A stretch of 64,000 nt of DNA from Actinomycetes bacterium (GCA_031398525.1 JANNNL010000018.1:1011-65010); one strand, 5' to 3'; counted from the stretch's first letter, positions 14,016-38,556 are shown. Notes: generated by a model not told the origin, from the letters alone. Translations and numbers: made by a program.

Positions 14016-14019
14016 CCGG

Positions 14020-16674: not shown

Positions 16675-16715
16675 GAGGATGGTCCTTTGGGGGCGGGCGG
16701 GTGGGCGGGTGGTGG

Positions 16716-17309: not shown

Positions 17310-17377
17310 GTCCAGGAGTACGGCGGACTCTTACAAACGGTTCACGCTCATTCGCGAAAGTTTTCCGCGACGGCCGG

Positions 17378-17887: not shown

Positions 17888-17964
17888 TGGGCGGACACTA
17901 CGCGACGTCGCCGGGAGCCCATACGATTGAGAATGTGTCGAGTCCTACCCGCCCTGTTGCTCGG

Positions 17965-18330
17965 ATGACGACGCGCCCCGACGGCGCGGGCTCGGGCGGC
18001 CGCGGGTCGGTCGGCTGGTGGTACGCCGGCATGATCCTTGACCTCGTCCATATGCCCCTCGTCATCGGCATGGTGATTTTTGGAGCGTCGATCTGGGCGG
18101 GCAAGGTCTATGTCACGGTTGTGACGGTGCTGGTCATCCTGCAGATCGGCCTGATGGGCTGTCCGGTGATGTTCCTCACCCGATGGATGAAGCGCAGGTA
18201 CGACCCGACTTACGACGGCCCATGGTCGGTCACGGTGTGGTTGTTTCACCGTTACGGCCGGCTGGTCGGCATCGGCATCTTCATCTTCTTGGTTGCCCTG
18301 GCGGCCGGCCTTCGAGTGTTGTTCTTCTAG
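17965..18330 (+). CDS. Small membrane protein (DUF2784-like)
   Basis: Three hydrophobic helices and a CPVMFLTRWMKRRYD motif. The start is uncertain (ORF opens at 17875). Confidence 0.55.
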   Translation: MTTRPDGAGSGGRGSVGWWYAGMILDLVHMPLVIGMVIFGASIWAGKVYVTVVTVLVILQIGLMGCPVMFLTRWMKRRYDPTYDGPWSVTVWLFHRYGRLVGIGIFIFLVALAAGLRVLFF

Positions 18331-18369
18331 GTACGGCGTCTCAACGTCGTCGAGGGCGGGCACCGTTGG

Positions 18370-21534: not shown

Positions 21535-21556
21535 AACCTCCTAGTCATCCCACTGC

Positions 21557-22726
21557 TCATTCCGGCTTTTCGGAGCCCACGACCCACATGGCAAAGAACT
21601 GCGAGCCACCACCATAGGCATGGCCCAAGGCCTTGCGGGCTCCGTCGATCTGGTGCTCGCCGGCCGTGCCCATCACCTGCATCGCGGCCTCGCCGAAGCG
21701 GATCGTGCCACTGGCTCCGATCGGGTTGGTCGACAACACCCCGCCCGAGCAGTTGACCGGCAGCTTGCCAACCATCTCCGTGTGGCCATCTTCCACCCAG
21801 CGCCAGCCGTCGCCCTTGGGGGCGAACCCGAGGTTTTCGAGCCACATCGGCTCGAACCAGGCGAACGGCACGTACATCTCGACGACGTCGATCTCCTCGG
21901 CCGGGTTCGTGATCCCCGCCTTGCGCCACAGGTCGGCGGCGCACATCTCTCCGGCGAGGGGGCTGATCGTCTCGCGTCCGGCGAACTGGGTCGGCTCCGA
22001 CCGCATCGCCGTCGCGTGCACCCATGCTTTCGGTCCGTTGTGGGCGTCGGCGGTCGCCTCGTCGGCGAGCACCATGGCGAAGGCCCCATCAGACGACGGG
22101 CAGGTCTCGACGAAGCGCACCGGGTCCCACAACATCGGGCTTTCCAACGCCTTCTCGAGGGTGAGGCCCTCGTCGTGCAGGTGGGCGTAGGGGTTCTTCA
22201 GCGCGTTGGCGCGGTCTTTGACGGCGACCGTGCAACCGATATGTCCAGGGGCCCCCGAACGTTTCATGTAGCCCCGGATGATCGGGGAGAAGTAGCCACC
22301 GGCGCCGGCGTGAACGGGCATGCCAAAGGGCATCGGCACCGACAACGCCCACATCGCCGAGCCGTCGGACTGCTTCTCCCAGCCGATGGTCAATACCCGT
22401 TGGTGCAGGCCGGCCATCACATGCTGGGCGGCGACGATTACCGTCGAGCCGCCGACTGAACCAGCGGTGTGGACGCGGAACAGCGGCTTGCCCTGGGCGG
22501 CGAGCGCGTCGGCCAGCCACAACTCGGGCATCATCACACCTTCGAGCATGTCGGGGGCCTTGCCGATGACGATCGCATCGATGTCGGCCATCGTCAGCTG
22601 GGCATCGTCCAATGCCCGGTCGACGGCCTCACGGACCAGGCCGGCGATCGAGACGTCGGCCCGGCACGATGTGTGCTTCGTCTGACCGGTACCAATGACA
22701 GCGCAGCGCTCGGCCATTTCAGTCAC
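21557..22726 (-). CDS. Thiolase-like (SCP-x/lipid-transfer-protein type) protein
   Basis: Thiolase-fold length and motifs (VIGTGQTK, IGWEKQS, NCSGGVLS.NPIGASG). The expected nucleophile Cys position reads HTAGSVGG. Confidence 0.8.
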   Translation of the reverse strand: MTEMAERCAVIGTGQTKHTSCRADVSIAGLVREAVDRALDDAQLTMADIDAIVIGKAPDMLEGVMMPELWLADALAAQGKPLFRVHTAGSVGGSTVIVAAQHVMAGLHQRVLTIGWEKQSDGSAMWALSVPMPFGMPVHAGAGGYFSPIIRGYMKRSGAPGHIGCTVAVKDRANALKNPYAHLHDEGLTLEKALESPMLWDPVRFVETCPSSDGAFAMVLADEATADAHNGPKAWVHATAMRSEPTQFAGRETISPLAGEMCAADLWRKAGITNPAEEIDVVEMYVPFAWFEPMWLENLGFAPKGDGWRWVEDGHTEMVGKLPVNCSGGVLSTNPIGASGTIRFGEAAMQVMGTAGEHQIDGARKALGHAYGGGSQFFAMWVVGSEKPE

Positions 22727-23774
22727 CCTCCATCACACACACGAGATTCTGTTGCAGCAGCGGACCCGACGACGCGTGCCCGAGCACCCGGTCGGCCGTG
22801 CCACCCATCACCCGGTTGGCCGCTTCCGCAATGCGCAACAGCCCGGCGGCCATCATCGGGTTGCCACACAGCGGGCCTCCCGACGGATTGACCGATGTGG
22901 CCGAGGGGTCGATACGCATCTCCCGATGCAAAATCAGCTCCTGATGCGTGAACGGGGCATGCAGTTCGGCCACATCGAGTTTGTCGTTGTGGGCTCCGGC
23001 GGCGTGCGCGGCAAGCCGAGCCGACGGTGCGCCCGTCAGGTCGCGAGCCCCGATGTTCTGCATGTCGATGCGGTGCTCGATGCCTCGAATCCACGCCGGA
23101 CGTTCGCACAACGAGCGGGCCAGATCGCCTCCGGCGATGACCATCGCCACCGAGTTGTCGGCGACCGGCGGGCAGTCGTGGGCCCGCAACGGATCGCTGA
23201 TGCGGGGCATGGCGAGCAGTTCGGCGATGGTGTGGTGCCCGGTGACCAGGGCATTCGAGTTGTTCGTGCCGTCACGGCGGGAGCGGGCGGCGATGGCGGC
23301 CATCTCGGACTCTGTGATGATGCCCCGTTCCAGCAGCACCCGCGCCTGCATAGCGGCGATCGAGCGCTCGTCGGGCCACAACGGCCCGACGACGTAGGGG
23401 TCGAGTTGTAGCGACATGATCCGGTTGATGTCGCCCGACGACGACTTGCCGTTGGCGAACACCACCGCCGAGTCGCAGTCGCCGAGTTGGATCTTGATCC
23501 ACGCCTCGTACAGCGCCCACGCCCCATCCATCTCGACGTGGCTCTCGACGATCGGCGGGAACGCCCCGATCGCGTCGACCGCCGAGACGAAACTGAACGG
23601 CTGGCCGACCATGTAGTCGCACGACCCATGGCACCAGAACCCGATGTCGCGCCGATCGAGCCCCGACGCAACGACGGCTGCGTCGATCACGGGCACCATC
23701 AGTTCGACCGACGTCTTGTTGGTGTCGACCTCCATCACCGACTGGCTGGTGGCGATGATCGCTACGTCTCGCAT
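22719..23774 (-). CDS. Thiolase-like protein, second subunit
   Basis: VNPSGGPLCGNPMMAAG C-terminal motif. Overlaps the downstream gene by 8 nt. Confidence 0.75.
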   Translation of the reverse strand: MRDVAIIATSQSVMEVDTNKTSVELMVPVIDAAVVASGLDRRDIGFWCHGSCDYMVGQPFSFVSAVDAIGAFPPIVESHVEMDGAWALYEAWIKIQLGDCDSAVVFANGKSSSGDINRIMSLQLDPYVVGPLWPDERSIAAMQARVLLERGIITESEMAAIAARSRRDGTNNSNALVTGHHTIAELLAMPRISDPLRAHDCPPVADNSVAMVIAGGDLARSLCERPAWIRGIEHRIDMQNIGARDLTGAPSARLAAHAAGAHNDKLDVAELHAPFTHQELILHREMRIDPSATSVNPSGGPLCGNPMMAAGLLRIAEAANRVMGGTADRVLGHASSGPLLQQNLVCVMEGD

Positions 23775-24277
23775 CAGCGATCACCCGCTTCGATGTCGAG
23801 ATCGGGCTCGCCGGTTGGACGGAAGTGATCGATATTCTCCAAGGTCGGCCCCCACTCGGCCCGGTCTTTCCAGACCGGTTCGACCCGCATGCCAATGCGT
23901 ACCTCGGCGGCATCGCACCCGAGCACCAGGTGACTGACCGACATGTCGGCATCATCGAGCTTGATATTCGCAGCGACATAGGGAATCGGGATCTTCTGGC
24001 CGAGGAACGGCACATTGACCACACAGAAGGTCGTGATGGTGCCGCGTGGCCCGACCTCCACTTCTTCGGCCAAGGCCCGAGCGCACTTCGGGCAGGTTCC
24101 GTTGCGTGGGGGGAAGTAGACGAGCGAGCACGACGGGCAGCGATTGCCGATCAACCGGCCTTCGAGGAGCCCGGCGAGATGTGACGACGAGTTCGGTCCG
24201 GCCGAGTAGCGGTAGCTGATCGTGATCGGGGTGCGGACCTTGAGGACCGGCCCGGGCTCCGCAAACGCCGCGCTCAT
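23774..24277 (-). CDS. DUF35 Zn-ribbon/OB-fold protein
   Basis: Rubredoxin-like CPSC...CPKC followed by an OB-fold region. 1-nt overlap with the next gene. Confidence 0.8.
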   Translation of the reverse strand: MSAAFAEPGPVLKVRTPITISYRYSAGPNSSSHLAGLLEGRLIGNRCPSCSLVYFPPRNGTCPKCARALAEEVEVGPRGTITTFCVVNVPFLGQKIPIPYVAANIKLDDADMSVSHLVLGCDAAEVRIGMRVEPVWKDRAEWGPTLENIDHFRPTGEPDLDIEAGDR

Positions 24278-24858
24278 GCCGCGTCGTCCAATTCGTCGTC
24301 GACGGGCATCTCGTCGACGATCGGCAATTCGTCGACCGGCAACTCGTCAACCGGTCTGGCTTCGACGGCGACCGGGTCGAAGCAGACAATGTCGGTGATC
24401 CCGGTGCCTCGCTCGGCCGCCCATCGCACCCGCACTCGCATCCCGGTTTCCATGTTGTCGGCCGAGCCAGCATCGACGGCATGGAGAAAACCGTGACCGG
24501 CACCGTCCAAACGGATCAAGGCCCAGGCAAACGGATGATCGAGCGGGTTGCCCTCGACCGGTGACGGCTGCCACGACCACGTCGTCACGGTCCCCTCGGA
24601 GCCGACGGTGACCCACTCGGTGCAGGCCGCCCCGGTGACCGGATCGAACTCGATGGGCGGTACATAGACCGCGCCATCCGCGCCGCGGGTGCCTTCGATC
24701 TGCCTATCGCGCAATCCGGTGAAGAACCGTCCATAGGTCGCACCGAGAGTGCGTCCATAGGGGTAGCTCAATACCAACGGGGCGGTGAAACAACCGTCGG
24801 CGGCGATGGTGTACTCGCTCGTCGCTCCAGCCATACCCCGAGGTTTACCAGATGACAT
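24274..24858 (-). CDS. DUF35-like OB-fold protein with degenerate Zn ribbon and acidic repeat tail
   Basis: OB-fold-like core with no CxxC pairs. C-terminal RPVDELPVDELPIVDEMPVDDELDDAA. ATGA overlap with the downstream gene. Confidence 0.65.
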   Translation of the reverse strand: MSSGKPRGMAGATSEYTIAADGCFTAPLVLSYPYGRTLGATYGRFFTGLRDRQIEGTRGADGAVYVPPIEFDPVTGAACTEWVTVGSEGTVTTWSWQPSPVEGNPLDHPFAWALIRLDGAGHGFLHAVDAGSADNMETGMRVRVRWAAERGTGITDIVCFDPVAVEARPVDELPVDELPIVDEMPVDDELDDAA

Positions 24859-24865
24859 GGTTCAC

Positions 24866-24894
24866 CTGACGACCCGTCAGATTTCTGCGGGGCC
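24866..24894. repeat. Left copy of a 29-bp perfect direct repeat flanking the R-M islet
   Basis: CTGACGACCCGTCAGATTTCTGCGGGGCC, identical to 33995-34023. Contains the palindrome CTGACG-ACC-CGTCAG. Confidence 0.95.
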
Positions 24895-24898
24895 AACG

Positions 24899-27800
24899 TC
24901 AGCCGAGCGGCCAGCGGTGGGTGATGTATTTCTGCTTCTCGGGATCATTGGCCGCGAATAGGTGGGTGAGGTTGTTGATGCGGGCGTAGAACATCGGCTT
25001 CTTGACCAGGTTCGTAGAGACCTTGCCTTCGGTGGTCTTCGACTTCACCTCGACCTTTACGGTCGCGTCGATGGGGAACGGACTGGGCTTCGCGTGGATT
25101 CGACAGACGTCCTCGCCGTCGACCGTCGAGATGGTCATGGTCAACGTGGCGACGGCGGCGGCACCGAGCGCTGCGATCAGTACCGAGTTGACCATCAGTT
25201 CGAACTGGTCGGTGTCGGACTTGCCTTCCTTGCGAACTCCGACGTAGTCGAGTTCGAGCCCGAAGACGCTGCCGTCATCGGCGACGCCGAGAAGCAGGGT
25301 GCCTCCGTCGTACGAGTTGAGGAACGCGGCGACGGTCTTCACCGCCGATGTCTCGACGAGTGGTGACTTCAGGCCGGTTGACGAATCGGTCCGGAACGTC
25401 GACTTGTACTCCAACCACTTGTCCTCGCCCCGTCCGATCAGCTCGCCGACCGGGCAATGCTCCTGGCGAGCAACCTTGGCCTTCGTCTGGATGAGCGGGC
25501 CAACGACATCAAGCAACGCGGCGGCGTAAACGTCGTCGCCAACGAACTTCTTGACGAACTCCGTGGCGTCGGTGGCCTGGTCGATGATCCCCTCTTGGAG
25601 CTGCGGCTTGAGCACAAGCTTGAACGCCGTGCTGTCATTCACTGCCGCGGCCTGCTGCAACGTCTCGTCGCCAGACAACTGATCGATCAGCACTCTGACC
25701 TGGTGATCCTTGGCGATATCACCGCCGAAACGGTCGTTGAGTTCCGCGATGATCTCGGACAGCGGAATCTCCTCGGGTGCCCGCTGCTTGCCGCCGAGAG
25801 TGCTCGGCGGCTCGACCATCCCGACATCGGGGTCGAGGGCGATCCGGCCCGCAAACGTGATCTCGGTCGCGAGATGGGTGAGGTCGACCTGGTCGCCGAT
25901 GTCGAGCGCCGACTCGGCGTCGCGTCGTAGGAACGGGGCCAGCGCCCGGCAGAACAGGTAGTCGCGTTCCAGCTTGACGTCCCCGAACTGGGCGATCTGC
26001 GACAGATACGAATAGGTGTTCACGAACCGCTTCAACGCGTCGCGGAACAACTCCCGCTCCTGTTCGTCGAGATCGTCGGCGAACCGGGACTTGGCCGGCT
26101 CCAACATCGGATGGATACGGCCCGAATCACTCGGGTCGTCGAGCAGCACCCGCACGAACGCTTCGGCTTCCTCGGCATACACGACCCCGAACTCGCTCAT
26201 CTGATGATGGGCGTCGTACATCAGGTTCGGATCGGTCGGCGGGCTGACCGTCTGCACGTACCACGGCGCGAACGACTTCCGGATGGACTCGGCGTCGTTG
26301 CGGAAATCGAGCACGAACGTCGAATCCTTGTCGGGGTGCCGCCGGTTCAACCGCGACAACGTCTGCACCGCCGCCAACCCCGACAGCGGCTTGTCGACGT
26401 ACATCGTGTGCAACTTCGGCTGATCAAACCCGGTCTGATACTTCTCGGCGACCACCAAGATCTGGTACTTGTCGGAGTCGAACTGCTTCGGGGTCTGCGA
26501 TTCGGGGAAGCCGTTGATCTTCGTCTCGGTCCACTCCCCGCTGTCGTCGCGCAACGAACCCGAGAAGGCGACGAGTACCCCGACGTCACCAATCCCGTTG
26601 TCGCGGCAGTACTTCTTCAACGCATCCCCGTACCGCAGCGCGTGCATCCGCGACGCCGTGACCACCATCGCTTTCGCCTGCCCGCCGACCTTCGAGGCGA
26701 CATGGGTGCGGAAGTGGTTGATGATGATGTCGGCCTTCTGGCCCAGGTTGTGCGGGTGGAGGTTGACGAACTTGGCGATGGCCACCTTTGCCTTGGCCGG
26801 GTCGTACTCCGGGTCGTCGCTGATCCGCTTCTCGATGTTCCAATATGTCTGATACGTCGTGTAGTTGGCCAGCACGTCGTGGACAAAGCCCTCCTCGATC
26901 GCTTGGCGCATCGAGTACAGATGGGACGCCTCGAACTTCCCCGTCATTGGGTTCTTCGCCCCGAACAACTCCAATGTCCGCGACTTCGGCGTCGCGGTGA
27001 ACGCGAAGAATGACAGGTTCTGTTGCCGACCCCGGGCGGCGATCTCGGCCGCCAACTTGTCCTGCACCGGGTCTGGAAGCTCGTCAATGTGCCCGATCTC
27101 GGCCGCCTCGGCCTGAGCGAGGGCCAACTCCTCGTCGCCTACCTTCGTGCCGAGCACCTTCTTCAGTTCCTTCGATGCCTCACCCGACTGCGACGAATGG
27201 GCCTCATCGGCGATCACCGCATACCGACGGTTCGGGAGTTCGGCGACCTTCGTCAACACGAACGGGAACTTCTGAATCGTGGTCACGATGATCCGTGCCT
27301 GCGAACCCGACAACGCGTCGGCCAACTGCTGGGAGTTGTCGTCGATCTTCTGGACGACACCGGCGACCTTCTCGAACTGGGCGACCGTGGCCTGTAGTTG
27401 CTTGTCGAGCACCACCCGGTCGGTGATCACGATCACCTTGTCGAACACCTTCACGTCGCCGTCGTGCAAGCTCGACAATCGGTGCGCCAACCAGGCAATC
27501 GTGTTCGACTTCCCCGACCCCGCCGAGTGCTGCACCAGATAGTTGGTGCCCACCCCGTCGGTAAGAACCCGCTGCTCAAGCTGTACAACAGCGTCCCACT
27601 GATGGAACCGTGGAAAGACGATGTCGCCGGTGCGCTTCAACCCCTTCTTCGTCGGCTCGACGTGGACGAACCGGGCGAGAATGTCGAGCCACGCGTCACG
27701 CGCCCACACCTGTTCCCACAGGTACGACGTGCGGAAACCTGCCGGGTTCGGCGGGTTTCCCGCACCGTTGCCGTCGCCACGGTTGAACGGCAGAAACCGG

Positions 27801-28444
27801 GTGTTCGTGCCATCGAGGCGGGTCGTCATCCACACCGACTCGGTGTCGAGCGCGAAGTGGACGACTGCCCGGCGCGACAAGGTCAGGTTCCTCTGGTCGC
27901 GGTCGGTCTGATACTGCCGCTTGGCGTGCTCCGCCGACTGACCCGTCAAGTGGGTCTTCAACTCCGCCGTCGCCACCGGTATGCCGTTGACGAACAGGCA
28001 CAGATCGAGCGTCTTGGTGCCCTTCGCCTCGTAGGGCAACTGGCGGGTGACCGTCAAGCGGTTGGCCCGGTACCGGGCTTCCGTCTCGGGATTCAATCCC
28101 CGAGCCGGCCGCAGGTACATCAACCGGACCGTCGTACCCAGGTAGTCGACGCCCGATCGCAGCACCTCGATGATGCCCCGATCGTCGAGCACCTTCGCCA
28201 CCCGCTCGGCGAATGCGCGCTGGGCCGCATCGGCATCACCGCCGTGGAGGATGACCAGCTTCGACCATTCGTCCGCCTGCGTGTCGCCGATGAATGCGAA
28301 GAGTTCGGCCGTGTCGAGCCCGAGCGTCGGACTGAAGTGCTTCACTCCCGACTGGGCACCGTTCTTGGCCAGCGCATACCCACCGGGCCCGACCAGCGAA
28401 GCAACAATGGCCGCCTCGAAGTCAGCCTCTTTCGGCCCGCTCAT
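24899..28444 (-). CDS. hsdR: Type I restriction enzyme R subunit (HsdR) with C-terminal AlbA_2/Schlafen-like domain
   Basis: 1181-aa intact ORF. HsdR_N region, SF2 helicase motifs (QHSAGSGKS, IADEAHSSQ, TGFDQP, QTLSRLNR) and a DUF3387-like region. The last ~185 aa read KWLEYKSTF...AAFLNSYDGGTLLLGVADDGSVFG. Confidence 0.9.
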   Translation of the reverse strand: MSGPKEADFEAAIVASLVGPGGYALAKNGAQSGVKHFSPTLGLDTAELFAFIGDTQADEWSKLVILHGGDADAAQRAFAERVAKVLDDRGIIEVLRSGVDYLGTTVRLMYLRPARGLNPETEARYRANRLTVTRQLPYEAKGTKTLDLCLFVNGIPVATAELKTHLTGQSAEHAKRQYQTDRDQRNLTLSRRAVVHFALDTESVWMTTRLDGTNTRFLPFNRGDGNGAGNPPNPAGFRTSYLWEQVWARDAWLDILARFVHVEPTKKGLKRTGDIVFPRFHQWDAVVQLEQRVLTDGVGTNYLVQHSAGSGKSNTIAWLAHRLSSLHDGDVKVFDKVIVITDRVVLDKQLQATVAQFEKVAGVVQKIDDNSQQLADALSGSQARIIVTTIQKFPFVLTKVAELPNRRYAVIADEAHSSQSGEASKELKKVLGTKVGDEELALAQAEAAEIGHIDELPDPVQDKLAAEIAARGRQQNLSFFAFTATPKSRTLELFGAKNPMTGKFEASHLYSMRQAIEEGFVHDVLANYTTYQTYWNIEKRISDDPEYDPAKAKVAIAKFVNLHPHNLGQKADIIINHFRTHVASKVGGQAKAMVVTASRMHALRYGDALKKYCRDNGIGDVGVLVAFSGSLRDDSGEWTETKINGFPESQTPKQFDSDKYQILVVAEKYQTGFDQPKLHTMYVDKPLSGLAAVQTLSRLNRRHPDKDSTFVLDFRNDAESIRKSFAPWYVQTVSPPTDPNLMYDAHHQMSEFGVVYAEEAEAFVRVLLDDPSDSGRIHPMLEPAKSRFADDLDEQERELFRDALKRFVNTYSYLSQIAQFGDVKLERDYLFCRALAPFLRRDAESALDIGDQVDLTHLATEITFAGRIALDPDVGMVEPPSTLGGKQRAPEEIPLSEIIAELNDRFGGDIAKDHQVRVLIDQLSGDETLQQAAAVNDSTAFKLVLKPQLQEGIIDQATDATEFVKKFVGDDVYAAALLDVVGPLIQTKAKVARQEHCPVGELIGRGEDKWLEYKSTFRTDSSTGLKSPLVETSAVKTVAAFLNSYDGGTLLLGVADDGSVFGLELDYVGVRKEGKSDTDQFELMVNSVLIAALGAAAVATLTMTISTVDGEDVCRIHAKPSPFPIDATVKVEVKSKTTEGKVSTNLVKKPMFYARINNLTHLFAANDPEKQKYITHRWPLG

Positions 28445-28744
28445 CGCCGAGACCCCTACGCCGTGAGTTCCTCGACGGTCGAACGCATCGTCATCACGGC
28501 CCGCGGAGTCACGGTCGGATAGTACAGCGGACGATTACGGACACCGGCGCAGTACCGGCGGTTTGCCGTTCGTGACACCCGCTCGGATGTTCTCGGTGCC
28601 TCACCGGCCGACGGATCGATACCGCATCTGGCGGGGTGGGTGGGCACGACTCGAATGGCAAAATCCAAATCCAGCGAAGCTTCTGACCTGGATACATTCC
28701 CCGATACGACTCACATTGGAGGTCGTTTCGTCAGATGCGTACGA

Positions 28745-29040
28745 TCAGCGAACTTCGCTGGGATTCGATCCGCCCGCAGACCTTCGTCCGAACATCCGCG
28801 CCGCAGTCTGTAGGCACTCGGCTGAATGGGTAGCGGCGGTCACCTGAGCGTTGGTGCTTTTGCGCGGAGCGGTCCGGCGCCGTTCCGAGTTGGTCGAGGG
28901 TTCCGAGATGACATGCAAGCTGTTCTCCACCTCGTCGACCAACACGACACCGCCGACAGCCTGTCTGATCGGCAGCAGCAGATTGACGGGCCGAAAATCC
29001 CGCGGCCACGACTGAGTCGAACCGCCAGGGGTCGGGGTCG
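28745..29040 (-). pseudogene. C-terminal remnant of an ABC-like AAA ATPase (AAA_21-like)
   Basis: The frame reads ...LLLLPIRQAVGGVVLVDEVENSLH...NAQVTAATHSAE.... This gives a Walker B/D-loop hhhhDE.E.sLH and an H-loop THS. No Walker A region is present upstream, where the HNH gene begins. Confidence 0.4.
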
Positions 29041-29126
29041 GCCGGCTCTCACGTCGCCGCCATGGAATCTCTGACTTTCACCCGGGAGTTGGCTGGTGCG
29101 TCGGGTGGCCGGTCGGTGACCGCAGG

Positions 29127-30443
29127 TTAGGCCGAGGCTTGGGCGGGGGGTGGTTCGGCGGGGGGTGGTTCGGTCAACTCGGTGCCGTCGGGTCGGTAGA
29201 CGTGCCAGTGGCCGGTGGTGTCGCGTCGGGTGGTGTAGCCGCGGTTTTTGGCTCGGTTGTGGCGGGGGCAGGCGGGTGCCCCGTTGACCGGCGCGCTGAT
29301 TCCGTTGGTTGACCAGGGTTGCAGGTGGTCGGCTTGGCATCGGCTGGTGGGCAGGTCGCATCCCGGCCACAAACATCGTTGGGCGTGCAGCATCACTGCT
29401 TGTCGGGCGGATCCGGTGAAGAGTCGTTGTCGGCGTCCGAGGTCGATGACGGTGCCGGACGAGTCGTAGACGACCCGCCGCACATGCCCGATCAAACTGG
29501 CGATCAGTATGTCGTCGGGGTGGAGCAGGGTGCCGTTGCCCGTTTCGCACCGCCGGGTGTACGGGTCGGTCGGTGCGGTGGCGGGTGCCGCGCCGGGGGA
29601 CCGGCGGACCAGTGGTGCGTCGGGGTCGGTCATCAGTTGGGCGAGGTGGTTTTCGTACGTTTGTTGGTCGACGACGATGTTGACGGTCGGTTCGGGTATG
29701 CGGGCGTCGATTGAGGCGCCGGCGGCGGCCCGGAAGATCGCGGCGATGGTGTCGAAGCGGCGTTGGGCGTCGGTACGACCAAGTTGTACGGCGGTTGGGT
29801 TGGGGCCGTGTTCGGTGACGGCGGCGTCCCAGTCGGTGAGGAATTCGGCGGTGCGGAACCGCTCGAAGATTTCGAGCATTTCGTTGGCGACCGCCGCGGT
29901 GCCGCCTTCGGCGCGTAGATGCAACCCGGCTTCGGACTCATGCAGCGACGCGTCACGCAGGTCGTGGTTGCGGGCGCGGTCTTTGTAGGCACCGTCGGGA
30001 TCGGCGAGCAGTTGCCAGCGTTGGACGCACAGTCTGAAGTCGGCGAACGGGAGCGTGGCGGCGTGGTGGAGCAGGGTGGGGGCGATGTCGGCGAGGTGGT
30101 CGCCGCATCGGGGGTTGCGACGCGCTTTGGCGAGTTCGGATGCTTGGGTGATACCGATTTGGCCGGTGTGGAGCATCTCACCGGACGCCGGGATTTCGTG
30201 GAGGAGTTGGCCGAGCCGGACCAGGTGGGATGCGTCGATGTCGGAACAATTCGTGTGGGCTTTCATCCACCCGCGGATCGACGCGTGACAGTCGATGCGA
30301 TGAACATTGTGCCGGGCGGCGAAGTTGACGAGCCCGGCGAGCTTGGCTTCGATCGCTCGGCGTTGCTGGTCGAGTTCCCGAAACGCGACAGCAAGTCCTC
30401 GGTGGTCATAGTCATTCAGCTCGTCCAGGAATTCTGCGAACAT
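29127..30443 (-). CDS. DUF222 domain HNH endonuclease (REP13E12-type actinobacterial family)
   Basis: DUF222 N-terminal region and a C-terminal HNH motif (CLWPGCDLP...CQADHLQPW...NGAPACPRHNRAKN). Start taken as ATG 30443 (the ORF opens at TTG 30479). Confidence 0.85.
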   Translation of the reverse strand: MFAEFLDELNDYDHRGLAVAFRELDQQRRAIEAKLAGLVNFAARHNVHRIDCHASIRGWMKAHTNCSDIDASHLVRLGQLLHEIPASGEMLHTGQIGITQASELAKARRNPRCGDHLADIAPTLLHHAATLPFADFRLCVQRWQLLADPDGAYKDRARNHDLRDASLHESEAGLHLRAEGGTAAVANEMLEIFERFRTAEFLTDWDAAVTEHGPNPTAVQLGRTDAQRRFDTIAAIFRAAAGASIDARIPEPTVNIVVDQQTYENHLAQLMTDPDAPLVRRSPGAAPATAPTDPYTRRCETGNGTLLHPDDILIASLIGHVRRVVYDSSGTVIDLGRRQRLFTGSARQAVMLHAQRCLWPGCDLPTSRCQADHLQPWSTNGISAPVNGAPACPRHNRAKNRGYTTRRDTTGHWHVYRPDGTELTEPPPAEPPPAQASA

Positions 30444-30556
30444 ATGTACGATTCTACGCCATCCCGACGCAGGAAACAAGCCTCTACCAGCACTTTAACA
30501 CAATTTCATGGGGCGTAGGTGGAGGTTCGCGATCACCGTTCAAGTGAGCAATGGAC

Positions 30557-31793
30557 TCACGCCGCCACGCCAGGAATCTCCAACTCACCTGTCACCGCAG
30601 CCGTGATCAAGGCTTGCCGTCGCTCGACGAGAAGGTTGATCTGCCTTCTCAACGCAGTGCCCATACTGCGTCGATACCCATCTGACCGGACCGCGAGTTG
30701 GTATCGTCGCTCCTGCTCGGCGGCTTCGAGAGCTGGAATTCGCATGCTCAGCAGGGTGGGTTCATTCACGTTGGCAAGCGTCGCTCTCGTGGACTGGCTA
30801 TCGAGCTGTTGTCGGTATAGACCAATCTGAAACAACTGTCCAAGAAACTCCGACGACAGGTGGGGACCAGTCCGGATCGCTATTGAGTCACTGCCACAGA
30901 GCCATCCGGCTGAGGCAGCCGAGACGACGGCTGCTCTCCCAACGTCGCCCTTGCGCCCCATTACGATGTCGCCCTCATCGAGTCGGTGGCGCGCCAGCCT
31001 CGATGCCACTTCTGCGGGCACCGTGATGTGATTCTCGGGAGAAAGTCGACCCTCCCTGATATGAGTGGGATTGATCAGCGGCACACCCCCCCTCGACGTA
31101 TTCGCTGGCCGCAAGAACGGTCCCGAACGGACCGGTCAGCACCGAGCCGCCGTACTGGCGAAGTGTCTTGCTTCGCCCAACCCGCCAGTCGCCGAGCGTT
31201 TCCAGCAACGATGCCTGATGCCACTCGTCGAGGAGTTCGATCATGCGGCGCTTCTTGGTGATGAGGGCGTCGATGCGTGCGGTCTCGGTGTCGAGGTAGT
31301 CCGCGATCGCACGCTGCTCCTCTGCTGGCGGCGTCGGTATTCCGAGGCGCTCGATTACCTCGGTCTTCAGCCCGTATCGGGTCACGCCGGTGGCACCGAC
31401 CTCAAGTTCGCGACGGACTCCCGTTGAACTCATAGCCCAGTACAGAAACCGCCCTTCTGCCACCGAGTGCCTCGGTCGAAGAATCGCTAGGTGATATCCA
31501 CATACAAGGTCCGGCGCCGTCGAGTCGACGAAGGCAGGTATTCCGATGTCGTTCGCAGTTTCAGAGTCCTTCGTGATGACTACATCGTTGGCTTGAAGTC
31601 GAAATCGGCGTACTTGCTCGGCGGTGGCGGTGGCACGCATGAGCGACGGAGACGGCGCGATTCGATCGCCGTAGTACACGTCGGTGTAGTTGCAGAGCTG
31701 CACTGGCAGGCCAACATCGTCGGACTTCTTGTCGACATTGCTCACGGCCACGGACGCCAGTCGCTTGAGCGGTTGCACCGGCCAGTAACTCAC
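30557..31793 (-). pseudogene. hsdS: Type I R-M specificity subunit (HsdS), frame broken at a C7/G7 tract
   Basis: TRD1 plus the central conserved region lie in ORF 30975-31793. TRD2 plus the C-terminal conserved helix (LLVERRQALITAAVTGEL) lie in ORF 30557-31114. The run of 7 C at 31086-31092 would be in frame with 6. Confidence 0.8.
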
Positions 31794-33846
31794 ACCGTGA
31801 CCTCGTTCAGCAGCGCTTGGATCTCAGCTTCGAGGGCCTTGATTTCGGCGTCGATTTCCTCGAGGGGTCTGGGTGGGACGTACATGTAGAAGTGGCGGGT
31901 GAGTGGGATTTCGTAACCGATCTTGGTCTTGCCGTAGTCGACCCAGGCGTCGGGGACGTAGGGCTTGACCTCGGTGTCGACGTAGTGATCAATGGCGGCG
32001 CGGTAGTCGGGGGTGTTGAGCCGTTTGGTCGGGTCGGTCTCGAAGGCGAGTCGCACGGCGGGCAGGGGGACGTTTTCGTTGTCGCGGACGTCGGGGTCGG
32101 GGAGGGGGTTTGCCCTTGGCGTCGGTCTGGGCGGGGGCGTCGGGGTCGCGGACGGCGAGGGCGTCGACGACGGCGTTCTCAATCGGCTTGGCGTGGGCGC
32201 CGAGATCTTTCAGTACCTGAGCGACACGTTTGCGGAGGTCGCTGCCGTCGGCTTGCCACTCGACTCCACGAAGGCCACTGACCGCGTCGAGCAGTGCCGT
32301 GCGGACTTCGTCGTCGAGTTTGGCGAGCTTCCTGTCGGCGGCAAGTACCGCCAGGGTGTCGTCGGTGACGGTGTAGCGCAGCCGCAGGGGGCGTTCGACG
32401 GTGATCCGCATGAACCCGAATGCTTCGTTGGGGAAGATTTTGGAGCGGTCGTTGTCCTCGAACTCGCCGTAGAGGCGGACGATGTCGGCGATCTGGTCGG
32501 CGGGGATCTGCTTGCGTTTCTCACCGAGACTTTTGCGCATCTTGGTGAACGACTGGCGCTCGTCGTTGAGCTGCACCTTGCCGCGCCGCTTCGACGACTT
32601 GCGGTTGGTGACGATCCAGAAGTAGGTCGAGATCCCGGTGTTGTAGAACAGATGGTCGGGCAGGGCGACGACCGCGTCGAGCCAGTCATGTTCGATGATC
32701 CAACGGCGGATCTCGCTCTCGCCCGACGCGGCCGCGCCGGTGAACAGTGGGGAGCCGTTGAAGACGATTGCCAGGCGGGAGCCACCCTCCTCGGGGCGTT
32801 TCATTTTCGAGATCATGTGTTGCAGGAACAAGAAGCTGCCGTCGTTGATCCTCGGCAACCCGGCCCCGAATCGGCCGGAGAAACCCTTGGCACCATGCTC
32901 GCCGCGGACCTCGTCCTCGACCTTCTTCCACTCCACCCCGAACGGCGGGTTGGCCAGCAGATAGTCGAACGTCGCCCCCTCGTGGCCGTCTTCCGAGAAC
33001 GAGTTCCCGAAGGCGACGTTGTCGGCGTTCTGGCCCTTCAACATCATGTCCGACCGGCAAATCGCGTACGACTCCGGGTTCAGCTCCTGCCCGTAGACCA
33101 CGAGCGTCGCCTTCGGGTTGAGCCTGCGGACATGGTCCTCGGCGACCGACAGCATCCCACCGGTGCCGCATGCCGGGTCGAAGATCGTCTTGGCGATCCC
33201 TGGGGTGGCCAGCATTTTGTCGTCCTCATCGAACAACAGGTCGACCATCAGGTCGACCATCAGGCGGATCACTTCACGCGGGGTGAAATGCTCACCCGCC
33301 GTCTCGTTGGAGAGTTCCGAGAAGCGCCGGATCAGTTCTTCGTAGAGGTAGCCCATCTCGATGTTCGAGACCACGTCGGGGTGCAGGTCGATCGAGGCGA
33401 ACTTCGACAGCACCTTGTACAGCAGGTTCGCCTTGTGCAGCTTGGCGATCAGGGTGCCCAGCTCGAACCGCTCCAGGATGTCACGCACCTGCGGTGAGAA
33501 GCCGGCGATGTACTGCGCCAGGTCGTCGGCGAGGTGCGCGGGGTCGGCGAGCACCGTGGTCAGGGTCGAAGGTCGAGATGTTCCACAGACCCTTTACATC
33601 CGAGTGCCGCTCCAGGAACGGGGCGAAGTTGTCGAACGAGTCCTTTACCCGGGCGTATTCGGCGAGCATTGACGCCTTGCGTGGCTCGAGCACGCAGTCG
33701 AAACGACGCAATACCGTCAACGGCAAGATCACCTTGCCGTACTCCGACTGCTTGTAGTCACCGCGCAGCAGGTCGGCAACGCTCCAGATGAAGGCGGCGT
33801 GGTTGTTGACCCGCTCGCTGTTTACGCCTGAGTCTGTAGCAGCCAT
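31790..33846 (-). pseudogene. hsdM: Type I R-M methyltransferase subunit (HsdM), frame broken twice
   Basis: HsdM_N segment ([34 protein letters not shown]), N6-MTase core (DPACGTGGML, NPPFG) and typical C-terminus (PDPDVRDNENVPLP...IGYEIPLTRHFY) lie in three frames. The breaks are at G3 (33563-33565) and G5 (32103-32107). The stop overlaps the hsdS GTG (GTGA). Confidence 0.85.
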
Positions 33847-33994
33847 GGCCCTCGTCGATCTCTCCGACGGCTCCACGGTCGGAGCCACTCTGCCGGGCAA
33901 GCGCCTGATCGTAGTGAGTCGACTTCGCGGCCGCCTATTGCCCGGGCGGAGTGGCCGGCTCAAATGAATCGCCTACCCAGCGACCTGCGCCGAT

Positions 33995-34023
33995 CTGACG
34001 ACCCGTCAGATTTCTGCGGGGCC
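33995..34023. repeat. Right copy of the 29-bp perfect direct repeat flanking the R-M islet
   Basis: Identical 29-mer to 24866-24894, same orientation, 19 nt upstream of the ATG at 34043. Confidence 0.95.
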
Positions 34024-34042
34024 TGCGTGCCATGCTTGCCGT

Positions 34043-35044
34043 ATGCCGATGCTCATTCTGCGTTACGACCTGCGACTTCCACCCGAGGGCACTACTCCCA
34101 CAGCGGTGACCGGAGCCGGTCAGTACGCAGCGATGCTCGAACAATGTCGCTGGGGCGACCGCCTCGCCGTCGACATGGTGGTCGTCTCGGAGCATCACGG
34201 GGCACCCGATTCGTTCATGTCGGCTCCGTTGACGATCGCCGCGGGCATCCTCGGGGCCACGTCGAAGGTCAACGTGAACGTCTCGGCGCTGCTGGCGATC
34301 ATGCACAACCCGATCCGTCTGGCCGAGGAACTCGCCGCCATCGACTTGATGTTCCCCGGTCGGCTCTCGGTGATCCTCGGCACGGGGTATCGCCAAGAGG
34401 AGTTCGACATGCTCGGGATCACCTTCAAGGAACGCAACGAGCTGCTCGAATTGTGCGTCAATACCATCCGCCAGGCGTGGACCGGCGAGTACTTCGAGTA
34501 CGAAGGTCGGCAAGTGCGCGTGACGCCCACACCCGCGACGCCCGGCGGGCCGATGATGATGCTCGGCGGTTCGTCGGAGCAGGCCGCCCGCCGCGCCGCT
34601 CGGCTGCGGTGCATCTTCACCTCGGCGATCGGCACGCCGTCACTCGGCGAGGCGTACTACGACGAATGCGCCAAGGTCGGCTTCCAGGGTTACGCGTCGT
34701 TGCCCCACGGCGCGGGGTTCATTCACGTCTCAATGGACCCCGAACGGGACTGGGAGCGCATCGCCCCCTACGCCTTCCACGAAGCTCGCACCTATGCGTC
34801 GTGGCAGCGCAAGGGCCAGTCCTCGTCCGTCACCGTCAAGAACGCCGAGACGATCGACGACCTCAAGGCCTCGGGGGTGTATCAGGTGCTCACCCCCGAT
34901 GAGTTCGTCGAGCAGTGGCAGACCGGCAGCCCGTTCGGTGGCATGGTGCTTCACCCGTTGATGGGCGGAATCCCACCCGAGCTGGCCTGGGAAAGCCTCG
35001 AACTGATGGAGCACGACGTCCTGCCCCGCATCAAACCCGCCTGA
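34043..35044 (+). CDS. LLM-class (luciferase-like) flavin/F420-dependent oxidoreductase
   Basis: 333-aa ORF with an LLM-type fold signature (VVVSEHHG, LGTGYRQEEF). Confidence 0.8.
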   Translation: MPMLILRYDLRLPPEGTTPTAVTGAGQYAAMLEQCRWGDRLAVDMVVVSEHHGAPDSFMSAPLTIAAGILGATSKVNVNVSALLAIMHNPIRLAEELAAIDLMFPGRLSVILGTGYRQEEFDMLGITFKERNELLELCVNTIRQAWTGEYFEYEGRQVRVTPTPATPGGPMMMLGGSSEQAARRAARLRCIFTSAIGTPSLGEAYYDECAKVGFQGYASLPHGAGFIHVSMDPERDWERIAPYAFHEARTYASWQRKGQSSSVTVKNAETIDDLKASGVYQVLTPDEFVEQWQTGSPFGGMVLHPLMGGIPPELAWESLELMEHDVLPRIKPA

Positions 35045-35167
35045 TCGGGCGGCGGGCTGCGGTCCAGCGATGGGCCGACTGGCACGGGTCCCTGCCGGTT
35101 GTGGATCGGTATCGTGCCGATTCAACGTGTGGTCAGGCAGTCGGCCCGGCCAACGGCGGAGGATGAG

Positions 35168-37138
35168 ATGTTCGGTCGGATTGCTGCCGTGAGTGCGGTG
35201 TTGGGTGGGTCTCTGTTCGCGGCTGCACCGGTTCACGCGGGAGTCGCGACTGCCGCGACCGGTCGGGTTTCGATGACCGAGTATCGCCGGGTGATCGATA
35301 CCCGGCCCGGCGGCTCCACGTTCAACGGCGCGTCGCCAAAGGGGCTCCAGCGAGACCTGCCGCTCCCGGCTGGGTCGGTCGCAGTGGTGACGCTCGTTGC
35401 CCAGGACGTCGTCGGTACCGCGGCCATCGGGCCATGCGTAGGGCCTGTGTCAGCCGATGCCGACTTCGTCTTCGAACCGAACGATGTGCTGACGCGACGG
35501 GTCAATATCGAGTCACTACCGGCGACGTGTTTGCGCTCTACCGTCGGCGTTCACGTCATCGTTGACGTTGTCGGCACTGTCGCGGCATCACCGACGGCCG
35601 GAGGGCTGCAGTATCACCCCGCTGCGACCGAGTTGGTCGTATTCAACGAATCGCAGACCACGGCCACGCCATCTGCGTCCTATCTGATTCCGCGACGCGG
35701 GGTTGGCCCGGACAACGGAGCGGTGGTCTATCGAATCGATGCAGTGGGCGACGGCGGCGCAGGATACTTGACGTTGTATGGCTGTGACCTCCCACAACCC
35801 AACCGTTCAGACCTGCTTGCCGCCCAAGACCTTCCCGCGTCGAACATCGCCTATGTGGAGACGGGGCACGAGGCGTGTCTGTTCATCAGCGGCCCGCTGA
35901 CCGTCACGGTGACCGCTCTCGGCTGGCTGGAGCCCGGCGGGACCGACCCCATGAGGCTGCCCCCAACGATCAAGTCCCGTCTGACGGCATTCAGCGCACC
36001 AGGTCTCGTGCCGATCGCACCCAAGCGAGTGCTCGACACTCGCCGGGGAATCGGTGCTCCGGCGGCGTTGCTGCGGGCCGGTGGCACCGTTGCGCTCGAT
36101 CTCAACGCGGTCACGACGATCGACACCACCAGCGTCGTGATGAACGTGACATCCACTGGGTCGACGGGGGATGGGTTCGTCACGGTGTTCCCGTGCGACG
36201 ATGGCCAACCAGTCGTCTCGAACCTCAATTTCGCCGTTGGCCAGGACATTCCGAATCTCGTCACCGTCAGCCTGGGGGTTTCAGCAAAGATCTGCTTCTT
36301 TGCGTCGGCACCGACTCATCTCATCGCTGATCTCGCCGGCACGTTCGAGTTCGACGCCGGTGCGCTTGGAACGGCGACGGCACCACAACGGATTCTCGAC
36401 ACGCGGCGCGGCGTCGGGGCTCCGGCGACCAAGAGCGAGGCAGAGCGGTCCCTGCGCCTTGTCGTCGCCGGACGCAACGGGATCCCGGCTTCGGGTGTGC
36501 AAGCGGTCACGATGAATGTGACGGTCACCGCGCCGGACGCAGGGGGATTTCTCACGGTGTATCCATGCGATCAGCCCGTGCCCGATGCGTCGAATCTCAA
36601 CTTCACAGCGGGGCAGGATGTACCAAACCTGGTGACCGTCAAGCTGGCCGCCGACGGCAGCGTGTGCCTGCGATCGAGTGCCCGTACCCACATCATCGCG
36701 GATGTTGCCATGTGGTTCGGAGCTGGCGGGACCGATGGGATGTACGACGTATCGCCGACGCGGGTCCTCGATACCCGTGCCCGTTTCGGTGCCCCGAAGG
36801 TTCGACCGGGTGTGGCAGGACCGCTGACGGTCAATTTCGGACCATTGGCCGACGGGCTCACCGACATCCATGCCATCGTGATGAACACGACGGTGACCCG
36901 TCCGAGCGCAGCGGGCTATCTGACGGCGTTTCCTTGCGATCAGCCGATGCCCGATGCGTCGAATCTCAACTTCACGGCCAATCAGGACGTGCCCAACCTC
37001 GTCGTGGTCAAGACGTCCGCTTCCGATGGCACGGTGTGCCTGGGAGCCTCGGTCCTCACCGACGTCATCGTCGATCTGGCCGGGTTCTTCTCGAGTAGCT
37101 CGCTTGAGTTCTGGGAGGAATATCTCGCCGGCGCGTAG
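35168..37138 (+). CDS. Secreted protein built from five copies of an uncharacterised ~115-aa 'LDTR' repeat module
   Basis: Signal peptide MFGRIAAVSAVLGGSLFAAAPVHA. There are three well-conserved C-terminal repeats and two degenerate N-terminal ones. Confidence 0.7.
   Translation: MFGRIAAVSAVLGGSLFAAAPVHAGVATAATGRVSMTEYRRVIDTRPGGSTFNGASPKGLQRDLPLPAGSVAVVTLVAQDVVGTAAIGPCVGPVSADADFVFEPNDVLTRRVNIESLPATCLRSTVGVHVIVDVVGTVAASPTAGGLQYHPAATELVVFNESQTTATPSASYLIPRRGVGPDNGAVVYRIDAVGDGGAGYLTLYGCDLPQPNRSDLLAAQDLPASNIAYVETGHEACLFISGPLTVTVTALGWLEPGGTDPMRLPPTIKSRLTAFSAPGLVPIAPKRVLDTRRGIGAPAALLRAGGTVALDLNAVTTIDTTSVVMNVTSTGSTGDGFVTVFPCDDGQPVVSNLNFAVGQDIPNLVTVSLGVSAKICFFASAPTHLIADLAGTFEFDAGALGTATAPQRILDTRRGVGAPATKSEAERSLRLVVAGRNGIPASGVQAVTMNVTVTAPDAGGFLTVYPCDQPVPDASNLNFTAGQDVPNLVTVKLAADGSVCLRSSARTHIIADVAMWFGAGGTDGMYDVSPTRVLDTRARFGAPKVRPGVAGPLTVNFGPLADGLTDIHAIVMNTTVTRPSAAGYLTAFPCDQPMPDASNLNFTANQDVPNLVVVKTSASDGTVCLGASVLTDVIVDLAGFFSSSSLEFWEEYLAGA
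36014..37093 (+). repeat. Three well-conserved tandem coding repeats (36014-36352, 36380-36721, 36752-37093)
   Basis: Each reads P.R(V/I)LDTR...GAP....V.MN.T.T.....G(F/Y)(V/L)T.(F/Y)PCD...P..SNLNF...QD(I/V)PNLV.V.......(I/V)C......T..I.D.AG.F. Confidence 0.8.
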
Positions 37139-37233
37139 GGCTTGGGCGAAGGCCACTACGCGAGAGGACTCCTGACAGGATGGGCGGGTGAGCCACCGCC
37201 GATCGACTACGCGCTCACCGGGCCGCTGATCGC

Positions 37234-38556
37234 ATGGGTCGTTTTATCCGTCATGAGCGGGATCGGCGGATTCTGCGGCTCGCGCTCCCGGCCCTGGGCA
37301 CGTTGGCCGTAGAACCGTTGTATGTGCTGGTCGACACGGCGATCGTCGGGCGCATCGGCACCGATGCGCTCGCCGGCTTGGGCATTGCCTCGACCGTCCT
37401 GCTGACGGTCAGCGTGGTCGTCGGGTTCATGGAGTACGGCGTCACCCCTGACGTCGCCTACGCCCACGGTCAGGGCGACGCCCACAAGGCCCGGGTCGCC
37501 GCCACCGATGCGTTGTGGCTGACGATGTTACTTGGCCTACCGACGTGCGCGGTCGTCGGGTTGGGGGCGCGGCCGATCGCCGCTGCGCTCGGCGGTACCG
37601 GCGCCGTGCTCGATGCGGCGACGACGTATCTGCGGATCAGCGCCCTCGGACTCCCGTTCGTGATGGTCGCCTATGTCGGTCACGGGGTGATGCGAGGCGT
37701 CAACAACCTGCGGCGTCCGCTGATCATCGTGTTGGTGGCCAACCTCATCAACCTGATCCTCGAAGTCGTCTTCGTGTGGTGGCTCGATCTCGGAATTGCC
37801 GGCTCGGCGTGGAGCACCGTCGTCGTTCAAGCGATGGCCGCGGGATTCTTCCTGGCAGTGCTCAAGCCGCACCTCACGCGGGTACGCCCGGCGTGGCTGC
37901 GCGTCAAACCTCTGCTCGTGACCGGCCTACATCTCGGTCTGCGCGGCATCGCCATGTTGGCTGTGTGGATTACGATCACCTCGGTTGCGGCCCGCACCGA
38001 CACCCCCACCCTGGCCGCGAACCAGATCGCGGCCCAATTGTTCATGTTCCTCGCCCTCGGACTCGATGCGTTGGCGATTCCGGCCCAATCGTTGGTTGCG
38101 GGGGCACAGGGGAACGGTGACACCGACGAGGCATTGGCGATCGGTTGGTCAAGTACCCGATTGTCGCTGTGGTGTGCGTGCGGGTTGGCCGTGGTGTTGG
38201 CCGCCACGTCTTCGGTCCTGCCCAGGCTGTTCACCAACGACGCCGCGGTGGTCGACCGGGCAACGGGGGCGCTGTTGATCTTGGCGGTCATGCAGTTCCC
38301 CGGGGCCATCGCCTTCGCCCTCGACGGGGCCTTGATCGGGGCGGAAGACGAGAAATACCTCGGCCGCGCCGCCGTGATGAACCTGTTGTCGTTCGCTCCG
38401 CTGGCGATTGCCACGCTGATCTGGCCTCGGTTGGGAATCATCGGTCTCTGGGGGGCGCAGTTCGTGTGGATGGTGACGCGTGCCGTCGTCAACTCCCGGC
38501 GGTGGTCAGGCCGGCGCTGGGTCCAGAACCGATCGACCCGGGCGATCGTGTCCTGA
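37234..38556 (+). CDS. MATE family efflux transporter
   Basis: 440 aa, about 12 TM segments. N-terminal RRILRLALPALGTLAVEPLYVLVDTAIVGR is typical of MATE/DinF proteins. Confidence 0.85.
   Translation: MGRFIRHERDRRILRLALPALGTLAVEPLYVLVDTAIVGRIGTDALAGLGIASTVLLTVSVVVGFMEYGVTPDVAYAHGQGDAHKARVAATDALWLTMLLGLPTCAVVGLGARPIAAALGGTGAVLDAATTYLRISALGLPFVMVAYVGHGVMRGVNNLRRPLIIVLVANLINLILEVVFVWWLDLGIAGSAWSTVVVQAMAAGFFLAVLKPHLTRVRPAWLRVKPLLVTGLHLGLRGIAMLAVWITITSVAARTDTPTLAANQIAAQLFMFLALGLDALAIPAQSLVAGAQGNGDTDEALAIGWSSTRLSLWCACGLAVVLAATSSVLPRLFTNDAAVVDRATGALLILAVMQFPGAIAFALDGALIGAEDEKYLGRAAVMNLLSFAPLAIATLIWPRLGIIGLWGAQFVWMVTRAVVNSRRWSGRRWVQNRSTRAIVS

Follow-up and report, generated by a model that had tools for sequence, protein, structure and literature searches.

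Restriction-modification (R-M) units inserted with long target duplication were reportedly described by Nobusato et al. in 2000. Here we describe a type I R-M islet of 9,100 bp from an uncultured actinobacterium, which lies between two identical 29-bp direct repeats in a 64,000-bp stretch of DNA (Actinomycetes bacterium GCA_031398525.1, JANNNL010000018.1:1011-65010; the whole stretch is referred to below as the window). The islet separates two divergent transcription units, an operon that begins with a DUF35 gene and a gene encoding a luciferase-like monooxygenase (LLM). We judge the chances to be even that a type I R-M operon inserted a single time into the 79-bp control region between these units and that the insertion was accompanied by a long target duplication.

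The closest described systems are those assembled into a class by Furuta, Abe & Kobayashi (PMC2853133). In this class, R and M genes are found in an insert of <20 kb without other mobility genes, both flanking repeats can be aligned to a single sequence of the empty locus and the repeat is unique in the genome; the unit needs no integrase, transposase or terminal repeats. Their examples include an actinobacterial case (Clavibacter) and a type I hsdM-S-R unit of H. influenzae that is interrupted by genes for a regulator and an ATP-binding protein and shows a unique 46-bp duplication (PMC2853133). A threshold of >30 bp separates the class from site-specific recombination, this being an operational filter and not a mechanistic boundary (PMC2853133). 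A second established concept is that of cis-mobilizable elements (CIMEs), islands that are flanked by attachment (att) sites and lack an integrase (PMC5704250).

The R-M islet and its empty sites

The 29-mer, CTGACGACCCGTCAGATTTCTGCGGGGCC, occurs as two exact copies in the same orientation, just where the initial annotation had placed them (Table 1), and a search of the window allowing up to three mismatches found no third copy (0 expected from 100 shuffles). It is the longest exact direct repeat of the window, the runner-up being 17 bp in length; past the 29-mer, a weak similarity can be followed to 34 nt at 94%. Both islet junctions are real, having been assembled independently in two Logan contigs of run SRR20217203: the left junction is contained in L084, which is 100% identical to window positions 22179-27458, and the right junction in L085 (100% identity to 33730-35072). 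The 29-mer had 0 matches in metagenome contigs and a 21-mer sub-pattern had 0 matches in viral contigs, and no tRNA, tmRNA or Rfam RNA was matched in the window.

The closest species-representative genome is the metagenome-assembled genome MFD04651.bin.1.136 (L001), in which the site is empty: the LLM ortholog directly adjoins the DUF35 ortholog, both window copies of the repeat map to one site by blastn and synteny is kept on either side. A second genome, L170, is closer to the window than L001 (its LLM falls in the same 90% protein cluster, as do P0361, P0362, P0367 and P0368 from contigs of 8-30 kb) and also carries a single copy, CTGACGACCCGTCAG-ATATCCCCGAGGGC. L001 has the collapsed arrangement, with one copy of the repeat region between the DUF35 and LLM genes, that the initial annotation had suggested should be sought in relatives; in L170, the DUF35 gene beside the single copy is reduced to its first ~20 bases.

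The distances within this arrangement were calculated from a DUF35 start codon at 24834 (MAGATSEY) instead of 24858. The N-terminus beginning at 24834 is kept in L001 and fits protein P0121 (186 aa). With this start, the left repeat copy is 31 nt and not 7 nt from the start codon, while the 19 nt reported between the right copy and the LLM start codon was found to be accurate. Collapsing the two copies restores a clean empty site, as had been anticipated, but the resulting gap is 31 + 29 + 19 = 79 bp in length and not 55 bp. The gap in L001 is likewise 79 bp and L170 has the same geometry, such that 0 host bases were lost at insertion and 29 were duplicated. The start codons first assigned, which gave a DUF35 protein of 194 aa and an LLM of 333 aa, were rejected: neither protein had an exact match, whereas those from the corrected starts did.

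The repeat is host sequence. It opens with a 15-bp palindrome, CTGACG-N3-CGTCAG (6-3-6), which both empty sites (L001 and L170) conserve, in contrast to the 14 nt that come after it. This 14-nt tail is thus lineage-specific and yet identical in the two window copies, which suggests that the recipient's own sequence was copied and favours target duplication over an att site carried by an incoming element.

The locus resembles the units of Furuta et al. in most respects. Homologs of both R and M genes (hsdR, hsdS and hsdM by Pfam and PADLOC, with hsdM and hsdS frameshifted) are found in one insert well below 20 kb, in which the DUF222-HNH gene, a possible selfish passenger, is the only gene that might be counted as a mobility gene. 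L001 and L170 each carry the sequence of the flanking repeats once, at the empty site, and this sequence is not tRNA-like and not repeated elsewhere within the window. Pfam scans of the islet ORFs identified no integrase or transposase domain, in agreement with the initial annotation, and no terminal inverted repeats were found at the islet ends. The hsdR stop codon and the hsdM start are 4 nt and approximately 150 nt from the respective islet ends, which leaves no space for a recombinase gene; elsewhere in the window none was found among the scanned ORFs, with approximately 20 ORFs beyond the islet and its near flanks unscanned. Like the type I unit of H. influenzae, the islet has accessory genes inside the hsd operon, including a possible remnant of a gene for an ATP-binding protein. 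Unlike the described units, its target is a transcription factor-type palindrome inside a divergent promoter, its R-M genes are already frameshifted and a relative has a different islet at the same junction. Based on these comparisons, the islet is a further example of a known mode of R-M movement and not a new kind of element.

Transposons likewise come to lie between direct duplications of their target, which in IS1630, for example, are 19-26 bp in length. In contrast to transposons, the islet has neither a transposase nor inverted terminal repeats, and its 29 bp exceed the range reported for transposon duplications.

The insert is operon-tight. The unit that entered the site would have been self-contained, beginning with its own promoter, continuing with hsdM and hsdS and terminating at the stop codon of hsdR-AlbA_2. 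Its insertion would have copied 29 bp of host target, consisting of the operator-like palindrome and the 14-nt tail, by way of strand breaks staggered by 29 nt and subsequently filled in; the same arrangement would also result from an equivalent replicative event. The event may have survived because each of the divergent promoters kept its own operator, approximately 40 nt from each start codon, and this would explain how an insertion was tolerated in so small a control region. Following insertion, hsdM and hsdS would have acquired frameshifts and the ATPase gene would have been reduced to a remnant.

The duplicated palindrome

CTGACG-N3-CGTCAG was surveyed in 80 DUF35 loci (L001-L080) from many actinobacteria, with a total length of 1.29 Mb. 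Thirteen perfect palindromes were found where approximately 0.15 were expected from base composition, and with ≤1 mismatch there were 22, compared to 6.5 in shuffled sequences. Most precede a gene start by 20-50 nt, in many cases that of an immediately adjacent DUF35 gene, and a position between divergent genes is frequent; those outside the window vary in both the 3-nt spacer and the flanks. Examples are found at positions 3168 and 9956 of L003, 3262, 9925 and 14150 of L017, 3569 and 8829 of L022 and 1215 of L070, in DUF35/thiolase-type loci of Acidimicrobiia and other actinobacteria. Based on its conservation and position, CTGACG-N3-CGTCAG is probably the operator of some regulator. In the window, the center of the palindrome is approximately 40 nt from each of the two start codons, and we infer that it is an operator-like site shared by the two divergent promoters.

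A partly related islet in a sister lineage

L081, a Logan contig of 2.9 kb from run SRR22012406, encodes an LLM with 98% aa and 89% nt identity to that of the window. A variant of the repeat, CTGACGACCCGTCAGATTTCTCGGAGGCC, is found directly upstream of the LLM gene, and the DNA to its left differs from that of the window beginning at exactly the nucleotide of the window's right junction. Reading leftward, the first 119 bp are unrelated; they are followed by a DUF222-HNH cassette (86% identity to that of the window), a stretch of 169 bp without a match (approximately 112 bp of intergenic sequence and the divergent 3' tail of the DUF222 gene) and a 5'-truncated AlbA_2 fragment with 90% identity to window 25247-25378. 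Neither of the two L081-specific segments (queried as 169 bp and 120 bp) resembled the window or any other locus. Judging from this contig, a smaller islet, in part related to that of the window, occupies the site in the sister lineage.

Pairwise comparisons of the 14-nt tail among the window, L081 and L170 give 3, 5 and 4 differences (approximately 0.29 per site), which equals the divergence at third codon positions of the LLM gene (97/331); in L001, the tail is unalignable. The two window copies differ at 0/14 positions, for which P is approximately 0.008 if they are as old as the lineage split, the sample being small. A similar pattern is observed for the AlbA_2 fragment (L081 1-132 versus window 25247-25378), in which 5/44 third positions differ (P = 0.004 against the LLM rate, over 132 nt only). 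These two small-sample statistics argue that the window duplication is younger than the lineage split, and the second hints that islet DNA was exchanged between the lineages after they had separated. The DUF222 gene is as diverged between window and L081 as is LLM (124/427 third positions, 0.29 for both genes; dS 0.51 and 0.59, respectively). The DUF222 cassettes of the window and L081 do not share their junctions, and they may therefore be independent insertions that do not date the islet.

Several points weigh against a single insertion with target duplication. That the L081 islet abuts the repeat at the identical nucleotide is not predicted by a random one-off insertion unless L081 is a remodelled descendant of the window islet, and if it is such a descendant, the identity of the two window tails becomes difficult to accommodate. 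The perfect duplication of 29 bp is 1-2 bp under the threshold of the Furuta class (34 nt if the 94% match is counted).

The locus provides a clean natural case of a defence operon entering a compact divergent promoter without disabling either neighbour, with its strength in the two empty-site relatives, the base-perfect geometry and the re-assembly of both junctions. It would add an uncultured actinobacterial lineage to the range of the long-target-duplication mode of R-M mobility; as a by-product, the analysis points to a DUF35/thiolase-type regulon with a conserved operator-like palindrome. Two aspects may be mildly novel: the duplicated target is a conserved operator-like site, and the same junction has perhaps been re-used in a sister lineage. 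Should the site in L081 have been re-used in a truly site-specific manner, this would suggest that defence islets can integrate by a route that is recombinase-independent or trans-acting.

Content and decay of the islet

The features of the islet and its immediate flanks are listed in Table 1. Pfam matches and translations agree with the initial description of the DNA between the repeats as an R-M cassette, the genes of which are read on the minus strand, from right to left, in the order hsdM, hsdS, DUF222-HNH, remnant and hsdR-AlbA_2.

Table 1. Coordinates of the islet, its repeats and the adjacent genes in the window.
Feature	Coordinates	Strand	Evidence and remarks
First DUF35/OB-fold (ChsH2-like) gene of the DUF35-DUF35-thiolase-like operon	24274..24834	-	Pfam; exact protein P0121, 186 aa; ortholog in L001
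Left 29-bp repeat copy	24866..24894	+	Exact match; 15-bp palindrome at 24866-24880 plus 14-nt fast-evolving spacer; aligns to the single site of L001 and L170
Inserted islet, 9,100 bp	24895..33994		Not at the orthologous site of L001 and L170; blastn synteny breaks exactly at the repeat
hsdR, type I restriction subunit with C-terminal AlbA_2/Schlafen fusion	24899..28444	-	Intact ORF, 1181 aa; Pfam HSDR_N, SWI2_SNF2/ResIII, T1R_D3-like and SLFN_AlbA_2; PADLOC REase_I
Non-coding remnant, ~680 bp	28445..29126	-	Translation contains the Walker-B-like peptide VVLVDEVENSLH
DUF222-HNH gene with ~65 bp of conserved upstream promoter	29127..30510 (ORF 29127-30443; conserved unit 29154-30510)	-	Pfam DUF222 and HNH
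hsdS, specificity subunit with both target-recognition halves	30557..31793	-	Pfam Methylase_S; three-frame translation; one frameshift near 31100
hsdM, methyltransferase subunit	31790..33846	-	Pfam HsdM_N and N6_Mtase in different ORFs; two frameshifts
Right 29-bp repeat copy	33995..34023	+	Palindrome at 33995-34009; 19 nt upstream of the LLM start codon; in L085
Luciferase-like monooxygenase (LLM) gene	34043..35044	+	Pfam Bac_luciferase; orthologs in L001 (83% aa), L081 (89% nt) and L170 (88% nt)

The hsdR stop codon is 4 nt from the left repeat and, at the other end, hsdM has its own upstream region of approximately 150 bp that extends to the right repeat. Translations and DNA place the hsdM frameshifts near 33565 (at a 'gaccctg' run) and near 32150. 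Together, hsdM and hsdS contain 3 frameshifts in 3.3 kb, compared to 1 in approximately 17 kb of syntenic core genes, so that the frameshifts appear to be specific to the R-M genes. Only hsdR retains an intact reading frame among the three hsd genes, and the set as it stands would probably not constitute a functional type I R-M system. The remnant upstream of hsdR is possibly a relic of an AAA_21-type ATPase gene; the AAA_21 match is weak (E = 0.032, under the family cut-off). With hsdM and hsdS frameshifted and the ATPase gene reduced to a remnant, the system is probably no longer active, either as an R-M system or as a mobile unit.

The C-terminal fusion of HsdR to an AlbA_2/Schlafen domain is also found in distant relatives (L086-L092 and L098), which align over their full length at 49-66% identity; to judge from these homologs, the fusion is an established architecture and not a local accident. 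No second copy of the islet was found in another context, the best metagenome relative of HsdR showing 66% identity, and searches of plasmid and phage collections returned only distant type I R-M operons (65-70% nt identity) on actinobacterial plasmids.

The initial annotation had proposed that GC content and codon usage might distinguish the islet from its flanks, but no difference was found at third codon positions: GC3 is 0.86 for hsdR and 0.85 for hsdM, compared to 0.84-0.86 for the flanking genes. Total GC content is slightly lower in the islet than in the flanks, a difference that arises at second codon positions. A compositional anomaly was therefore rejected; with host-like GC3, the islet is not compositionally foreign.

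Four contexts share the nucleotides at which homology to the DUF222-HNH gene stops (window 29154 to 30505-30510): the islets of the window and of L081, a chromosomal locus common to L166-L168 and a third locus in L169. The corresponding coordinates are 29154-30510 in the window, 302-1649 in L081, 9937-11265 in L166, 4430-5765 in L167 and 1232-2571 in L169. The locus of L166-L168 is conserved, with an ABC-type ATPase beside an acetyltransferase and an LLM. The shared unit is 1.35 kb in length and consists of the gene and approximately 65 bp of conserved upstream sequence containing a TAGAAT box, with 77-86% nt identity among its copies. No palindrome and no flanking repeats were found near the cassettes of L166-L169. 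A mycobacterial REP13E12/DUF222/HNH repeat family has been described (Gordon et al. 1999, cited in PMC10589994). Like members of that family, the unit encodes DUF222 and HNH domains, is approximately 1.35 kb in length and has fixed boundaries in unrelated contexts; unlike them, it lies inside an islet and does not form the bounding repeat, and no link between the cassette and the 29-mer was found. The DUF222-HNH unit thus behaves like a discrete mobile-like cassette of the REP13E12 type, and we treat it as a passenger nested in the operon and not as the agent behind the 29-bp repeat.

Alternative explanations

The main rival to an insertion with target duplication, and one that we consider rather unlikely, is that the islet is a decayed site-specific element resembling a CIME, which has kept attL and attR while losing its recombination genes. 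The att core, an idea raised in the initial annotation, would be all or part of the 29-bp repeat, and both integration and any later movement would have required either a trans-acting recombinase or a Campbell-type exchange in which an excised circle takes part with its one copy of the site; from the islet ends, the junction of such a circle is predicted to read ...CTGCGCCGAT + 29-mer + AACGTCAGCCGAG... As in CIMEs, a direct repeat-bounded island is found here without recombination genes, the putative attL and attR equal the attB of the empty genomes and the site may have been re-used in a relative. A different islet variant in L081 that employs the same right junction nucleotide would be expected under this explanation, as would the perfect identity of two repeats with a fast-evolving tail and the low divergence of the shared AlbA_2 fragment relative to LLM and DUF222. 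It also draws support from two related type I R-M islets, L100 (1694-11145) and L101 (6608-13773), in which hsdM-S-R operons, accompanied in L101 by a PIN-domain gene, are situated between repeats of 43 bp and 23 bp, respectively, of the 3' end of a tRNA-Gly(GCC) gene. These islets have no ORF of integrase size, and the scanned ORFs (five of ≥150 aa in L100, two small accessory ORFs in L101) contained no integrase domain; they look like integrase-less, att-flanked R-M islets, or tRNA-Gly CIMEs. In contrast, the site described here is not a tRNA gene or conserved gene end. No recombinase gene or remnant was found in the islet or among the scanned window ORFs (approximately 20 being unscanned), and no related intact element with the same att was found in the metagenome and viral collections, from which the 29-mer and its 21-mer sub-pattern are absent. 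The 4 nt between the left repeat and the hsdR stop codon leave no space for arm sites, and there is no third, internal att copy such as tandem accretion would leave. The L081 contig covers the right junction, at which the adjacent element sequence is unrelated to that of the window, so that the element ends next to the repeat are not conserved between the two islets. An attP carried by an element would also need to match exactly a 14-nt host spacer that is lineage-specific and evolves quickly, and the palindrome probably has an independent role in the host. Finally, the L081 evidence consists of one 2.9-kb short-read contig and 132 nt of AlbA_2.

Other explanations were considered less probable. 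The insertion may have preceded the split of the window and L081 lineages, with the 29-bp copies kept identical by gene conversion or promoter selection and L081 being a heavily deleted descendant. The equal divergence of DUF222 and LLM, the host-like GC3 and the frameshift load of the R-M genes, which suggests time for decay, are all in keeping with an old event, but we regard it as improbable: RecA-dependent conversion would have had to act on a very short tract (29 bp), selection can hardly be expected to keep 14/14 positions of a tail that is not conserved among relatives, the DUF222 cassettes with their differing junctions may be independent and the junction-side segments of L081 show no similarity to the window islet. 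Equally doubtful in our estimation is a family of recombinase-free defence islets with repeated, precise targeting of the CTGACG-N3-CGTCAG operator palindrome in divergent promoters and duplication of the operator, by which both flanking operons stay regulated, its members being moved in trans by a palindrome-acting host enzyme or by short-homology Campbell recombination of an excised circle. Such a family would explain the identical L081 junction, the perfect repeats and the low divergence of the AlbA_2 fragment. We considered and rejected, as very improbable, a homing-like process in which the DUF222-HNH nuclease cut at or near the palindrome and drove the insertion. This gene is the only nuclease gene of the islet besides hsdR, it acts as a discrete cassette in at least four contexts and in L081 it lies 119 bp from the palindrome; on the other hand, the window cassette is 4.3 kb and 3.5 kb from the islet ends, the contexts in L166-L169 lack the palindrome and flanking repeats, homing does not normally produce 29-bp duplications and PADLOC gives no match. 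The initial annotation had proposed recombination between copies of a REP-like hairpin element. That the islet lies, by chance or through such recombination, between two members of a dispersed family of this kind would fit the 6-3-6 palindrome at the start of the repeat but can be considered effectively refuted. Only two copies occur in the window, allowing two mismatches gives 5 matches where 7.5 are expected by chance, the orthologous site of the relatives has a single copy and palindromes elsewhere are found at promoter positions with a differing 3-nt spacer and flanks.

Flanking regions and other loci

Additional differences between the window and its relatives were observed outside the islet. 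The thiolase-like/DUF35 operon (window 21529-24814) is missing in L170 (9827-9895), L082 and L083, with L170 keeping just the first ~20 bases of DUF35 beside the operator; the neighbouring operon is therefore itself variable. Directly downstream of LLM, 2.2 kb of the window (35055-37245) are absent from L001, L082 and L170. This segment contains an ORF of 679 aa (35099-37138) that has no Pfam or PADLOC match, and it has no flanking direct repeats. A further 11.9 kb (5516-17395) have no counterpart at the syntenic position of L001, and part of this region (15223-17348) is present in L170. Its gene content is metabolic (F420H2 quinone reductase, epoxide hydrolase, methyltransferase, Stf0 sulfotransferase and others), with no integrase and no flanking repeats. 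No direct repeats were found at the other indels between the window and L001.

The single frameshift found in the approximately 17 kb of syntenic core genes is located near 20772, in an Amidohydro_2 gene (window 20292-21534) that is intact in L001, L082 and L170. In an observation unrelated to the islet, L140 was found to carry a large CRISPR-like array (13319-19400) beside a distant hsdR homolog; the repeat of this array contains GTCTAAATGCCCGCGAGGGCATTT and has a period of approximately 72-74 bp.

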